Source: an uncultured Heliomicrobium sp. (GTDB lineage Bacteria; Acidobacteriota; Blastocatellia; RBC074). Taken from it: a DNA stretch of 64,000 nt. The DNA is taken from positions 30,642 to 94,641 of the forward strand of contig CAZRXE010000825.1 of assembly GCA_964603695.1 (NCBI GenBank), given 5' to 3'. The translations under genes and the position numbers were made by a program. Below, in pieces: positions 10,432 through 14,055 of the stretch. The notes below the pieces were generated by a model. It saw nothing but the letters and a program-made list of their open reading frames with translations. It did no database searches and was not told the origin of the DNA. Position 1 is the first letter of the stretch. The number at the start of each line of letters is the position of its first letter.

Positions 10432-11922
10432 TCAGCCGTCGGATTCGTTCTGCCATTCGCGCGACCTGGCGGCGGAGGGGGTAAACAGATTGCCCAGATA
10501 TTCGAGCATCAGCTTGAAATCCTGCCAGCCGCCGGCGGTCGCGGAATAAAATGCTTCGGAAGAAAACAGTTCGTCTTCATCCGCCTGTGGGCCGTACCGC
10601 ACTTCGGCTTCAGTGACGATCCCGGCTTTGGCGCGCAGATAAAGCGCCTGCCAGTCCGAAGAAAGCTTTTTGATTTCCTCTTTCGACCGAGGCGCAACGC
10701 CGACAAATCGTAATTCGCCTCTGGCGACATTGACTATCGCCGGCAGGAACTTCAGAAAAAATACGCTCCAACGATTGGCGGATGTCGAAGCCTTCGATTG
10801 AAAACTCCAAAGCTGACAGGTCTTCCACTGCGCTTCGTGTTTAGGCGCAGGCAGCCCGACGTATGGCCGTTTGACCAGCACCGGGCCTGAACGCACGAGT
10901 TTCAAAATCAACGCCGTCAACAGCAGCAAAGGCCAGGTCAGTAACAACAACAATATTCCGGTCAGCCTTGAGCGGAATGCGCCAAGCCCCGCGCGCAGAT
11001 TGGTATCTGACAAACTGCCCAGAATGAAATCGTCGGCGACCGAAATCGCCGCGCCCAGTCGCGCATTGATAAGCAGGTTTTTGTCCACGATGACATCACG
11101 CAATTCCAGCGCTTCGCCGACATAACTGCCGGGGAAAACGACAGAGTTCGCCACCGTGCAGCGCGCGCCCAAAATGCCGTTGTGTCCGACGACGGCTCCC
11201 GGCCCCAGTTCAATACCTTCGCCGATGCGGCAGTTTTCGCCCAAAAAGACCGGCGCGGTGACGCGCGCAGTGGGATGCAACGTGACGTTGCGCGAAATCC
11301 AGATTCCCGGCTCGACTTCCTGCGCGCCGAGCGAAACGCAGGGAAACACCCTGGAAAAAACGGCAGCGTGCGCGTCCAGCAATTCCTGATACGACCGCAG
11401 CCCGACAATTCGCGGAACGGTGACGGTTTTGCCTGCGCGCAAATGCGCCAGCAACGCGGCTTCATCGAAATCTTCCCTGACCGCCGCGCAACTTTCCGGC
11501 GACAGCCACGCCCAGCCAGTCCAGGCGGCGGCGTCCGGCAGGCAATACAATGCTGCGGGCCGCGCCTGCTCCGCCTGCTCGCGCAGATTTTCCGGCAAAT
11601 GCGGAAAGCGGTCGGCGTGGCCCAACAAGATCGCTTCCCGCGCCGGCAAGGTTTTCAGCACGCCATAAGGCCGCGCGGCATCGCGCGCCAAATGAAAGCG
11701 AAACTTGCAGCCCCACCGCGCGCCATCGCCCAAAAAATGTTCCAGCTTTTCCGGCAAATGGTGCAGCACGAAATCAAATTCCGTCACGCCCCGTTCGACC
11801 AATGCTTCGATTTGCAATTGAATAAACGGCCTGTCTCCCAAGGGAAGCAACGGTACGGGATACCTTTCATTCAACTCCGGCAATTCAGCGTTCAGCCCTG
11901 TGGCAATCAAAACAGCTCGCAT
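10432..11922 (-). CDS. Three-part fusion protein: nucleotidyltransferase-like N-domain, left-handed beta-helix (hexapeptide) domain, and a C-terminal Bac_transf (polyprenyl-phosphate sugar transferase)-like domain.
   Basis: N-terminus resembles NTP_transferase ('LIATGL..PLLPLGDRPFI'). Hexapeptide run 'ISRNVTLHPTARVTAPVFLGENCRIGEGIELGPGAVVGHNGILGARCTV'. TM segment 'LLLLLTWPLLLLTALILKLVRSGPVLV' followed by 'ARGELRFVGVAPR', the analogue of '[11 protein letters not shown]'. Confidence 0.6.
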   Translation of the reverse strand: MRAVLIATGLNAELPELNERYPVPLLPLGDRPFIQLQIEALVERGVTEFDFVLHHLPEKLEHFLGDGARWGCKFRFHLARDAARPYGVLKTLPAREAILLGHADRFPHLPENLREQAEQARPAALYCLPDAAAWTGWAWLSPESCAAVREDFDEAALLAHLRAGKTVTVPRIVGLRSYQELLDAHAAVFSRVFPCVSLGAQEVEPGIWISRNVTLHPTARVTAPVFLGENCRIGEGIELGPGAVVGHNGILGARCTVANSVVFPGSYVGEALELRDVIVDKNLLINARLGAAISVADDFILGSLSDTNLRAGLGAFRSRLTGILLLLLTWPLLLLTALILKLVRSGPVLVKRPYVGLPAPKHEAQWKTCQLWSFQSKASTSANRWSVFFLKFLPAIVNVARGELRFVGVAPRSKEEIKKLSSDWQALYLRAKAGIVTEAEVRYGPQADEDELFSSEAFYSATAGGWQDFKLMLEYLGNLFTPSAARSREWQNESDG

Positions 11923-11933
11923 AAATCTCTCAC

Positions 11934-13313
11934 TTAAAAGTCCGAATCAGATTGTTGACCACGCTCTCTCAACACACGGTAAAGAAACACAGCGTTGCCG
12001 ACGAAATAGCGTTTCCACATCCGGCGCGGTTCCTGCCAGAAGCGGTAAAACCATTCCAGTCCCATTTCGCGCAGCCATTGTGGCGCGCGCGGAATGTTCC
12101 CCGAATAAAAATCAAATAGGCCCCCAACGCCCATTGCGACTTTGACGCCGATGGCCTGCAAATGCTCGTGAATCCATTTGTCCTGCCGCGGCGCGCCGAA
12201 TGCGACCAGCAACAGCGATGCGCCGGAATCCGCGATTTGCCGAATGACCTCCGGTTCTTCCGCAGGCGTGAAATAACCGTGTCGCGTTCCGGCCAGCTTC
12301 ACGCCGGGATAATTCTGCTTGATCCAATCTCCGACAGCTTCTGTGACGCCGGGTTTTGCGCCCAACAAATACAGTCCCTGGCCGGTGTTTTCCAACGCTG
12401 CGCAAAGCCTCGGAAACATGTCCGTGCCATTGACGTTTTGTTTGATTTCGCGACCCAGCAGCTTGCCGGCCAGTTTCAGCCCGATGCCGTCTGCCAGGGT
12501 CATGGCCGCCTGATTGAGCACGGCGCGGTAATCGGCATCGCGAAAGGAAATGTTGGCGCAATCGGCGTTGACGAAACAGACCTGCCCGGCTTCCTTGCCG
12601 ACGAGCCGCGCGATGATGTCTTCAATGGCTTCGCTCATCGTCAGATTGTGCATGCGAATGCCTAGAACGCGGATCACGTCCGCGACGTTCGGCAAGCCTT
12701 CGCCATAAAGCAGCGCCGGCAACGCGCGCGCCAGAATGCCCAGATCGCCCATCACGCTTTGGGTTTCGACGTATTCGGCGTCGGAATCGGCTTCGCTGTT
12801 GAAGGCAATATTGGCGCGCCGCCGCACCCACCATAAACAAATCAAACCAGGACGCACATTGTAACGTTTGCGCGCTGCGCGCTGGTGCGGACTCAAATCG
12901 CCCGGCGCCACCGCGCGCGGCCCGACAAAAGACATTTCGCCGCGAAAAATGTTGAACAGCGCCGGCAGGTGCATCAATCGCAAACGCGCTGCCCAGCTTG
13001 TCTCCGGCAAATTGAAGGAAAACTCCTCGTAGGTTTCGCAATAGCGTCCAGTGCGCGGTGTACGGCGAAATCTGCCTCCGCCAAGCAACAAACCTGCAAT
13101 TAACAAAGGCGATAGCAAGCCCAGCAACAGAAGCGCGCCCCAGACATCCAGCGCCCGTTTGACGCCGGAAATCAGCAGCAAACTGATGGAAACGGAAAAC
13201 CCGTGCCGCCAACGCTGGATTTTCTGACGACGTAAACCGTAGTCGGAAAAGCGTTGGTATAACTCTTCCTTGAGTTGTTCCCGCGTTTGTTGTGATGGCG
13301 TTTCGTTGTGCAT
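11934..13313 (-). CDS. Fusion of an N-terminal Bac_transf-like membrane domain with a C-terminal WecB/TagA/CpsF-family glycosyltransferase.
   Basis: 'KRALDVWGALLLLGLLSPLLIAGLLL...FRGEMSFVGPRA' is Bac_transf-like. C-terminal 'GVGGLFDFYSGNIPRAPQWLREMGLEWFYRFWQEPRRMWKRYFVGNAVFL' is the WecG/TagA signature. Confidence 0.75.
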   Translation of the reverse strand: MHNETPSQQTREQLKEELYQRFSDYGLRRQKIQRWRHGFSVSISLLLISGVKRALDVWGALLLLGLLSPLLIAGLLLGGGRFRRTPRTGRYCETYEEFSFNLPETSWAARLRLMHLPALFNIFRGEMSFVGPRAVAPGDLSPHQRAARKRYNVRPGLICLWWVRRRANIAFNSEADSDAEYVETQSVMGDLGILARALPALLYGEGLPNVADVIRVLGIRMHNLTMSEAIEDIIARLVGKEAGQVCFVNADCANISFRDADYRAVLNQAAMTLADGIGLKLAGKLLGREIKQNVNGTDMFPRLCAALENTGQGLYLLGAKPGVTEAVGDWIKQNYPGVKLAGTRHGYFTPAEEPEVIRQIADSGASLLLVAFGAPRQDKWIHEHLQAIGVKVAMGVGGLFDFYSGNIPRAPQWLREMGLEWFYRFWQEPRRMWKRYFVGNAVFLYRVLRERGQQSDSDF

Positions 13314-13320
13314 CGCAGAG

Positions 13321-14055
13321 TTAATAAGCGCCTTTGCCCAGCAACACTGCCGGAACGGTTTTGAATAACAGCTTCAGATCGAGCCACAGGCTTTGACTGG
13401 CAATGTATTGCACGTCGAGTTCCACCTGTTGATCGAAAGGGATGTCGCCGCGTCCGCTGACTTGCCAGATGCAGGTCAGCCCCGGCGTCACGTCCAGGCG
13501 GCGGCGGTCGGAAAGCGTATAGAGCGCTACTTCGCGCGGGACGGGCGGACGCGGCCCAACCAGCGACATGTCGCCTTTGAGCACAGACCAAAGCTGCGGC
13601 AATTCATCAATGCTCAATTTGCGAATGATGCGGCCAATCCAGGTCACGCGCGGATCGCGCTTCATTTTGAAGGTGATGCTTTGTTGATGATCGTTTTGCT
13701 TCAGCAATTGATCTTTCAACGCCTCGGCGTTGAGTACCATCGAACGGAATTTCGGAAAAGGGAATTCGCGTCCCCAGCGTCCAACGCGCTTTTGCCAGAA
13801 AAGGATCGGCCCGCCGTCCGTCAGTTTGATGCACAACGCCACGGCCAGAAACAGCGGCGACAGGCAAATGAGTGCCGCGCTCGCCACCACAATATCCAGC
13901 AGCCGTTTGAGCAGCCGCGCGCCGCCCAGCACAATCAGCCAGGCGTATTTTTTCTGCCAATATCGCCAGCGCAGTTTGAATTGGCCGCCGCCGCCATAAC
14001 GGCGGTGCAACTCTTCGATCAAAGACAAGCGGTGAGTTTGATCCGTCATACGCAC
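13321..14055 (-). CDS. Polyprenyl-phosphate sugar phosphotransferase (small PglC/WcaJ-C-terminal type). The canonical initiating enzyme of the locus.
   Basis: 'KFRSM', '[38 protein letters not shown]', '[12 protein letters not shown]': a complete Bac_transf signature including the Asp-Glu dyad. Confidence 0.85.
   Translation of the reverse strand: [244 protein letters not shown]

Follow-up and report, generated by a model that had tools for sequence, protein, structure and literature searches.

An intact phosphoglycosyl transferase encoded beside two conserved fusion proteins whose transferase-like domains lack the catalytic Asp-Glu dyad

Why would an exopolysaccharide gene cluster encode three phosphoglycosyl transferase (PGT) domains in a row, if two of them are fused to other modules and have lost the residues needed for catalysis? 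The question is posed by a stretch of 64,000 nucleotides (hereafter the window) from an uncultured Heliomicrobium sp. (Acidobacteriota, Blastocatellia in the GTDB lineage; assembly GCA_964603695.1, contig CAZRXE010000825.1, positions 30,642 to 94,641). Three minus-strand open reading frames, here named A, B and C, are the final genes at the downstream end of a minus-strand exopolysaccharide cluster of about 10.4–37.5 kb, and are separated by gaps of 7 and 11 nucleotides, as in a tight operon. All three match the Bac_transf family (PF02397), at 222.1 bits for A, 76.5 for B and 36.8 for C against a gathering cut-off of 27 bits. This agrees with a sequence-only reading of the window, the open reading frame coordinates of which, and the four strings it quoted (three motif blocks and the loop TGLNAEL of C), we recovered verbatim. 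The closest relatives of the trio are from Blastocatellia, at 71–75% identity. The overall picture that we favour, and consider probable, is that A is the sole PGT, B a second-step transferase and C a non-catalytic regulatory or scaffold subunit.

Gene A has the features of an intact enzyme. Behind an N-terminal extension of about 45 amino acids, the alignment with the catalytic domains of WbaP (E = 3.5e-50) and of the PglC structures (E = 2e-30) runs from end to end, and the protein has the KRxxD and S-P motifs of the re-entrant helix. It is the sole copy of the three to carry Asp-Glu, the pair that the sequence-only reading had called canonical, as Asp150–Glu151 (nucleotides 13603–13608). 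The dyad is likewise present in 55 of 59 neighbouring A-like small PGTs from the genome loci described below. An EELYRR[YF] motif ahead of the membrane helix is common to the extensions of A (residues 1–45, 13921–14055) and B (residues 1–45, 13179–13313). Because this extension is shared, the PGT-like domain of B is a duplicate of an A-type PGT, and the EELYRR[YF] helix could serve as a pairing or interface helix.

The fused domains differ from A at the active site. Three independent alignments of B (phmmer against solved PglC and WbaP, the Pfam hidden Markov model, and hhalign) place Met114–His115 at the dyad position, the last of these comparing the B family with a profile built from 60 neighbouring true PGTs (probability 100%, E = 2.6e-39, loci related to that of the window). 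The C family aligns by hhalign with the same profile (97.6%, E = 4.6e-12) and with the N-terminal domain of B (98.4%), with Lys391–Phe392 at the dyad; a weak phmmer match of C to WbaP (E = 0.047) also puts these two residues opposite it. None of the phmmer, Pfam or hhalign alignments sets an Asp-Glu pair at the catalytic position of a fused domain. Replacement of the dyad in both fusions had been proposed before, and the K-F pair given for C is correct; in B, however, the pair is M-H and not H-L, a one-residue slip that is clear from the quoted strings themselves, in which I-D-E-L stands against L-M-H-L.

Loss of the dyad extends across both families. Asp-Glu occupies these columns in 0 of 193 B relatives (0/113 homologues and 0/80 genome orthologues) and in 0 of 176 C relatives (0/117 homologues and 0/59 genome orthologues), the columns of the genome orthologues being read from an hmmalign alignment. 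The replacements are mostly R/H/T/N at position 114 and R/A/G/S at position 115 in the 113 B homologues, and R/H/Q followed by F/V/L in the 117 C homologues, with R-F as the C consensus. The proposal that the fused copies are non-catalytic is borne out by these counts, together with the loss of about 38 residues from B. It is very unlikely, to judge from the alignments, that either fused domain works as a catalytic PGT, a conclusion that we hold with far more confidence than the overall picture. Conservation on this scale, which lay beyond the sequence-only reading, shows a large family and no local oddity.

Two neighbouring sites in B have exchanged their charge. At residues 96–97 (nucleotides ~13023–13028) the basic KFR strand of true PGTs has turned acidic, with D-E as the consensus, and at residues 114–115 the acidic dyad has turned basic, with R-R as the consensus. 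An acidic residue 97 is paired with a basic residue 115 in 92 of the 193 B relatives, sequences that are not phylogenetically independent, and the pattern looks like a charge-swapped structural contact, that is, a salt bridge.

These sites bear on whether B, and perhaps C, could still be catalytic by means of relocated acidic residues such as Glu96–Glu97 of B, on the strand that bears KFRSM in true PGTs. At least one acidic residue is found at 96/97 in 161 of the 193 B relatives, and in true PGTs the register of the sequence sets this strand beside the dyad helix. An exact D-E, however, is present in 59 of 193 only; residue 96 is Asn in about 20% of the 113 homologues and residue 97 is Gln or Arg in about 21%, at odds with the constancy of the true dyad in the neighbouring PGTs, and the charge pairing of 97 with 115 looks structural. 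The roughly 38 residues that carry KFRSM and DPRxT are moreover gone from B, and C has no comparable acidic pair. We therefore judge a migrated dyad at 96–97 unlikely, and regard residual catalysis by the fused domains as improbable.

The match of B to PF02397 covers only the second half of the profile (positions 85–177), and profile–profile alignment attributes the ~38-residue deletion to the segment KFRSM...DPRxT of true PGTs. Retained are the re-entrant helix motifs K52, R53, D56 and S68–P69, along with the GPR and RPG motifs, N168, E174, D178 and Y181. Across the 113 homologues there is no variation at R53, N121, G125, G131–P132, P155–G156, N168, E174, D178 or Y181, and K52, D56, P69, R133, R154 and R166 are conserved in at least 90% (P69 in 99%); rare substitutions at E174, R53 and N168 occur among the 80 genome orthologues. 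R133 and R154 are the arginines of GPR and RPG, and R166 is equivalent to Arg145 of PglC, which acts with Arg88 in the binding of undecaprenyl phosphate (PMC10519829); B varies at the Arg88 position. The AlphaFold2 model of B (pLDDT 83.5, pTM 0.78) relates the domain to PglC by Foldseek (E = 6.5e-7).

The second domain of B is a glycosyltransferase of family GT26. It matches Glyco_tran_WecG (PF03808) at 213.8 bits (cut-off 27.4) and TIGR00696 at 161 bits (cut-off 69), and TagA (7mpk) in both sequence (E = 1.7e-45) and structure (Foldseek TM 0.96, root mean square deviation 1.2). Residues D275, R424, R431 and R435, the equivalents of Asp65, Arg214, Arg221 and Arg224 of TagA, are invariant in the 113 homologues. 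Asp65 is the catalytic base of TagA, and Arg214, Arg221 and Arg224 lie in its C-terminal appendage (PMC6493773). The WecG/TagA domain of B is apparently catalytically intact, as far as its conserved residues indicate.

Gene C combines a nucleotidyltransferase-like domain, a left-handed beta-helix (LbH) and a strongly degenerate PGT domain. The model of C is confident (pLDDT 91.9) and its Foldseek matches are to tlr0611 (E = 1.7e-18), to VTC1 and the GDP-mannose pyrophosphorylases (GMPP) GMPPA/B (E = 1e-15), and also to GlgC and eIF2B. The NTP_transferase model (PF00483) reaches 13.9 bits, below its cut-off of 21.2; LbH and Hexapep models match. ATGLNAEL replaces the GGxGTRL signature: the loop TGLNAEL, which the sequence-only reading had picked out as degenerate, lies opposite GGFGTRL of an active GDP-mannose pyrophosphorylase (7whr), and the signature is lost throughout the family. 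Across the 117 homologues the signature Arg has become Gly/Asp/Glu and the signature Lys of 'PKP' (Val23 in C) has become Thr/Ala/Ser/Val, with a loop consensus of ATGxxPGM. The PGT-like domain of C keeps P331 (99% conserved), G402, G408 and R412, with P394, G402, G408, R412 and W424 invariant, and has lost the KRxxD motif, in place of which stands SR. Neither the Arg88 nor the Arg145 equivalent of PglC is conserved. In the N-terminal region H36, R69, W70, H77, H102, D104, R105 and W137 are conserved and define a putative pocket. Because the family has its own set of conserved residues, C is under constraint rather than in decay.

Could C instead be an active sugar-1-phosphate nucleotidyltransferase or acetyltransferase that channels a donor directly to the PGT? 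Its fold matches active pyrophosphorylases, and NCBI labels its relatives 'NDP-sugar synthase'. Against this, the PF00483 score is sub-threshold, other residues stand for the signature Arg and Lys across the 117 homologues, and the LbH is of the non-catalytic GMPP/eIF2B type. An 'acetyltransferase-like' assignment had been made for this module; it is not supported, the LbH belonging with the oligomerisation type of GMPP, GlgC and eIF2B. We consider an enzymatic role for C highly improbable, somewhat more so than residual PGT activity.

Both fusions are widespread. Full-length relatives of B number at least 113 at 53–84% identity and relatives of C at least 117 at 45–73%, and an exhaustive search at E<=1e-30 placed the C family in 734 clusters (50% identity), the best 150 of which are nearly all full-length at about 500 residues. 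A pattern scan of one genome per species found a B relative in 196 species. The 80 loci taken into the analysis come from Acidobacteriota, Desulfobacterota, Verrucomicrobiota, Hydrogenedentes, Nitrospirales, Armatimonadota, Planctomycetota, Omnitrophota, Gemmatimonadota, Zixibacteria, Riflebacteria and Gammaproteobacteria. In the 66 loci with enough flanking DNA for synteny to be counted, A-B-C are contiguous on one strand in 42, from more than 10 phyla, and in 49 both A and C are found at a distance of 7 kb or less from B. Because the intergenic gaps are so short and the trio recurs in many genomes, its arrangement is not due to chance. The idea that the fusions tether their partner domains to the initiating enzyme in a membrane-organised 'metabolon' is consistent with the tight operon and conserved synteny.

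The same data deal with the notion that B and C are decaying duplicates or annotation artefacts devoid of function. Nothing more than the loss of catalytic residues speaks for it. Full-length relatives with the same architecture at 36–84% identity in more than 10 phyla, the 734 C clusters, the invariant columns and the confident models speak against it, and we take it to be effectively refuted by conservation.

B also occurs with neither A nor C adjacent, mostly in Desulfomonile and other Desulfobacterota (loci L014, L019, L033, L035, L038, L044, L069, L071 and L073). L014, L035 and L038 have genes for a small kinase and a STAS protein several kb off, and L035 and L038 have a divergent C-like gene (143–180 bits). 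The module is rearranged in this clade.

Taken together, we propose that A-B-C act as a conserved module that initiates a Wzx/Wzy-type exopolysaccharide pathway. A, as the only real PGT, would make the polyprenyl-diphosphate-linked sugar, to which B, a TagA/WecG-type enzyme, would add the second sugar. The N-terminal domain of B is a duplicated A-type PGT without the nucleophile and without a part of the pocket on its nucleotide-sugar side, which retains the putative re-entrant membrane helix and candidate phosphate-binding arginines; the former would most likely pin the transferase permanently to the membrane, and the latter would help to capture the lipid-diphosphate-sugar acceptor. C, none of whose three domains has a plausible catalytic centre, would be a membrane-docked regulatory or scaffold subunit through which signalling acts on initiation, by way of a partner switch of STAS, PP2C phosphatase and kinase or, in some lineages, of a PilZ domain that responds to cyclic di-GMP (c-di-GMP).

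A simpler role would be that of pure anchors, in which the degenerate PGT domains only pin soluble partners by their re-entrant helix and have no ligand, partner or regulatory part. The helix proline is indeed about 99% conserved in both families, and membrane association is needed for activation of TagA-type enzymes (PMC6493773). Conservation reaches well beyond the helix, however: in B N121, G125, G131–P132, P155–G156, N168, D178 and Y181 do not vary and R133, R154 and R166 are kept in at least 90%, and in C P394, G402, G408, R412 and W424 are without variation. The conserved soluble face of the domains is thus left unexplained by anchoring. A folded domain of about 170 residues under such constraint is unneeded for a simple anchor, and the fusion of signalling domains to C argues for more than anchoring. 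Anchoring alone is an unlikely account, if a better one than retained catalysis in B or C.

The link to signalling comes from gene neighbourhoods and from fusions. All three components of a partner switch are encoded in the cluster: a STAS protein with a phosphorylatable-Ser motif, a SpoIIE phosphatase and an HATPase_c_2 kinase domain. STAS orthologues adjoin A-B-C in 32 of the 80 loci and orthologues of the GAF–SpoIIE–HATPase_c_2 protein occur in 25; clear orthologues of these two and of the response regulator (REC) are each present in 25–32 of the loci, and 27 loci have a REC, PP2C–kinase or STAS gene no more than 600 bp away from A, B or C. Typical gene orders, with R, P and S for these three genes, are S<P<R<A>B>C>, R>P>S>A>B>C> and A>C>P>S>B>, and related loci repeat the order R-P-S. 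Long members of the C family are themselves fused to SpoIIE plus HATPase_c_2 (P0274), to HATPase_c_2 alone (P0267) or to a C-terminal PilZ domain (P0235, P0251), and one has an FHA-like insert (P0259). The P0274 and P0267 loci read small PGT, then C-fusion, then STAS protein. The PilZ and FHA-like variants (P0235, P0251, P0259; loci L081, L082) suggest c-di-GMP or phospho-threonine inputs elsewhere. A hybrid histidine kinase resembling that at 6776–9769 (>400 bits) is found just downstream of C in at least 15 loci, and the copy in the window may feed into the switch. Among the genes of the cluster that have a Pfam annotation, none was identified as a sigma factor.

The synteny within 600 bp and the fusions to C suggest an output role for the A/B/C module in a partner switch. 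They also suggest that C is mainly a regulatory subunit and not a tethered enzyme, a link absent from the sequence-only reading. A more specific and more tentative proposal, which we regard as possible and well short of probable, is that the trio and the REC, PP2C–kinase and STAS proteins make up a widespread post-translational on/off switch of Wzx/Wzy polysaccharide initiation, in which the pseudo-domains of B and C form a heteromeric membrane complex with A and C is the receptor. The phosphorylation state of STAS, or c-di-GMP via PilZ, would then act at C to gate use of the lipid carrier. If this were so, pseudo-PGT domains would be a new class of assembly and regulatory module.

Two H-NOX (HNOB) genes bracket the cluster, one at 9779–10336 (minus strand) with the kinase at 6776–9769 (minus strand) and one at 37979–38545 (plus strand) with a second large hybrid histidine kinase at 38551–41922 (plus strand) that has HNOBA, GAF and PAS domains. 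They hint at nitric-oxide or gas sensing that feeds into polysaccharide control. As conserved neighbours of the module they were discarded, with 0 and 1 matches in the 80 loci, and are a feature of this genome only.

Several observations weigh against the proposed module. The dyad replacements are variable, so that nothing specific seems to be selected at the old active site, and the neighbouring strand of B does hold a D-E pair in 59 of the 193 relatives. Residues 165–194 of B are modelled at low confidence. The trio is not obligatory, since 11 of the 66 loci have B with neither A nor C inside 7 kb, and the C-fusion loci hold A and C without B. Regulators are present in only 32 of the 80 loci (flanks as retrieved), and in this window they lie some 19 kb from C. 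Contact between A, B and C, binding of the lipid-diphosphate-sugar by the dead domains and the direction of regulation are steps that we infer from the genes.

Table 1. Features of the A-B-C module and of the signalling genes in the window, with the evidence for each
Feature	Position	Strand	Evidence
Gene A, small monotopic PGT, 244 amino acids	13321..14055	-	PF02397 222.1 bits, profile 1-178 of 179
Gene B, PGT-derived domain + GT26 (WecG/TagA) fusion, 459 amino acids	11934..13313	-	Pfam, alignments, AlphaFold2
B residues 40-207, degenerate PGT domain	12693..13196	-	hhalign, conservation, Foldseek
B Met114-His115, codons at catalytic Asp-Glu position	12969..12974	-	Alignments, family columns
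B residues 215-451, WecG/TagA (GT26) domain	11961..12671	-	PF03808, TagA 7mpk match, Foldseek
Gene C, pseudo-nucleotidyltransferase + LbH + degenerate PGT domain, 496 amino acids	10432..11922	-	Pfam, alignments, AlphaFold2
C residues 1-195, NTP-transferase-like Rossmann-type domain	11338..11922	-	Alignment to 7whr, family columns, Foldseek
C residues 200-295, LbH, GMPP/eIF2B type	11038..11325	-	PF25084, PF00132, PF24894, PF25087; model strand ladder
C residues 305-480, strongly degenerate PGT domain	10483..11010	-	PF02397 36.8 bits, hhalign
C Lys391-Phe392, codons at catalytic Asp-Glu position	10747..10752	-	Alignments, family columns
STAS-domain protein, anti-sigma antagonist type, DSSGLG motif	32612..32950	-	PF01740 75.2 bits
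GAF + SpoIIE (PP2C phosphatase) + HATPase_c_2 (RsbW-like kinase) protein	32934..35021	-	SpoIIE 146.8 bits, HATPase_c_2 89.3 bits
Single-domain response regulator upstream of PP2C/kinase gene	35018..35461	-	PF00072 92.2 bits
Hybrid histidine kinase (PAS, HisKA, HATPase, two REC, Hpt), downstream of C	6776..9769	-	Pfam

The remainder of the cluster is that of an exopolysaccharide pathway. It encodes a Wzy/O-antigen-ligase-like protein, a Wza-type exporter, a Wzc-like protein, GT4 and GT2 glycosyltransferases, two hexapeptide acyltransferases, an inorganic pyrophosphatase and an ATP-grasp protein; several of the glycosyltransferases resemble Myxococcus Eps proteins at scores below cut-off. Two open reading frames of 737 and 568 amino acids (16289–18502 and 21077–22783, minus strand) match no Pfam or NCBIfam model and may include the flippase or polymerase, or new components. 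The pyrophosphatase gene (30075–30755, minus strand) is in an unusual place, between the Wza-like exporter and a GT4 gene, and its product might pull nucleotide-sugar synthesis. The ATP-grasp match (19795–21012, minus strand) is weak and lies amid glycosyltransferase genes; the protein may attach an amino-acid or carboxylate substituent to the repeat unit. Elsewhere in the window are five MacB-like/FtsX permease paralogues of 800–885 amino acids (47860–61973, plus strand), four of them contiguous (47860–57758) and the fifth at 59316–61973. At the window edge (47–2272, plus strand) is a subtilase whose C-terminal match to the SLH domain is weak (E = 2.8e-7 for the protein as a whole, with no individual stretch passing alone).

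How does the module compare with known systems? A is a regular member of the small monotopic PGTs (PF02397) typified by PglC and WbaP. The N-terminal domain of B and the C-terminal domain of C share with these enzymes the fold, a putative Pro-broken re-entrant helix and a (K/R)G(D/E)hxhhG..PR core, but differ in that every relative is devoid of Asp-Glu, B of about 38 residues, and C of KRxxD and the Arg145 equivalent. Residues 1–295 of C have the same NTP-transferase plus LbH fold as GMPPA, eIF2B gamma/epsilon and GlgD and, like these, have lost the catalytic signature. GMPPA, eIF2B gamma/epsilon and GlgD are regulatory or scaffold subunits; C would differ from them in docking at the membrane through its PGT-like domain. 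The C-terminal domain of B matches TagA/TarA/WecG and presumably uses the lipid-diphosphate-sugar acceptor directly after the initiating enzyme, but TagA is peripheral and is activated by reversible membrane binding via its C-terminal appendage, whereas B would be permanently tethered.

Bifunctional monotopic PGTs (Bi-PGTs, such as Neisseria PglB), the class defined by O'Toole et al. 2021, are similar in architecture: as PMC10942596 and PMC10186338 cite that class, the PGT domain is joined, N- or C-terminally, to a further domain of a glycoconjugate pathway. The PGT domain of Bi-PGTs, in those same descriptions, is the catalytic core, whereas here it is degenerate and a separate active PGT is encoded next door. 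PGT-domain fusions, pseudo-pyrophosphorylases and partner-switch control of a Bac_transf protein are thus already known. Dyad-less PGT domains, the three-gene module and a partner-switch link outside cyanobacteria were not found in the literature searched, which did not cover the survey of O'Toole et al. 2021, and a 2024 proteome-wide PGT paper mentions neither dyad loss nor fusions. Under current names, the relatives of B and C are 'sugar transferase', 'NDP-sugar synthase' or WecB/TagA, and domain-based surveys would count them as bifunctional PGTs. Two large protein families built on inactive PGT copies beside an active PGT, in many phyla, point to initiation by a heteromeric machinery.

PGTs commit undecaprenyl phosphate, a scarce carrier, to a pathway, and the regulation and organisation of this step are largely unknown (PMC12802240). 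In Myxococcus xanthus the small signalling protein EpsW exerts post-translational control over the initiating monotopic PGT EpsZ (PMC12802240); EpsZ differs in being a large dimeric enzyme under direct control of a receiver protein, with no pseudo-PGT subunits. In Vibrio fischeri, where PMC4517449 touches on the mechanism of SypA in the SypA/SypE system, it is described as unknown. The switch proposed here, if true, would offer a candidate answer to such SypA-like STAS control of polysaccharide synthesis without a sigma factor. The genomic and fusion link supplies concrete candidates, open to test, for the target that STAS proteins which regulate biofilm polysaccharides still lack.

The closest parallel is in Anabaena, where a 2026 study found that a partner-switching-like module, HenR/Alr3423, controls the STAS-Bac_transf protein All4160, a fusion that its authors view as nearly cyanobacteria-specific (PMC13555669). 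In both systems STAS, a PP2C phosphatase and an RsbW-like kinase are linked, here by gene neighbourhood and fusions, to a Bac_transf step and not to a sigma factor (PMC13555669). They differ in that STAS is fused to Bac_transf in Anabaena, whereas here it is a separate protein and it is the kinase and phosphatase that are sometimes fused to C. The genomic and fusion evidence for a partner-switch link would extend the cyanobacterial mechanism to Acidobacteriota, Desulfobacterota, Planctomycetota and others.

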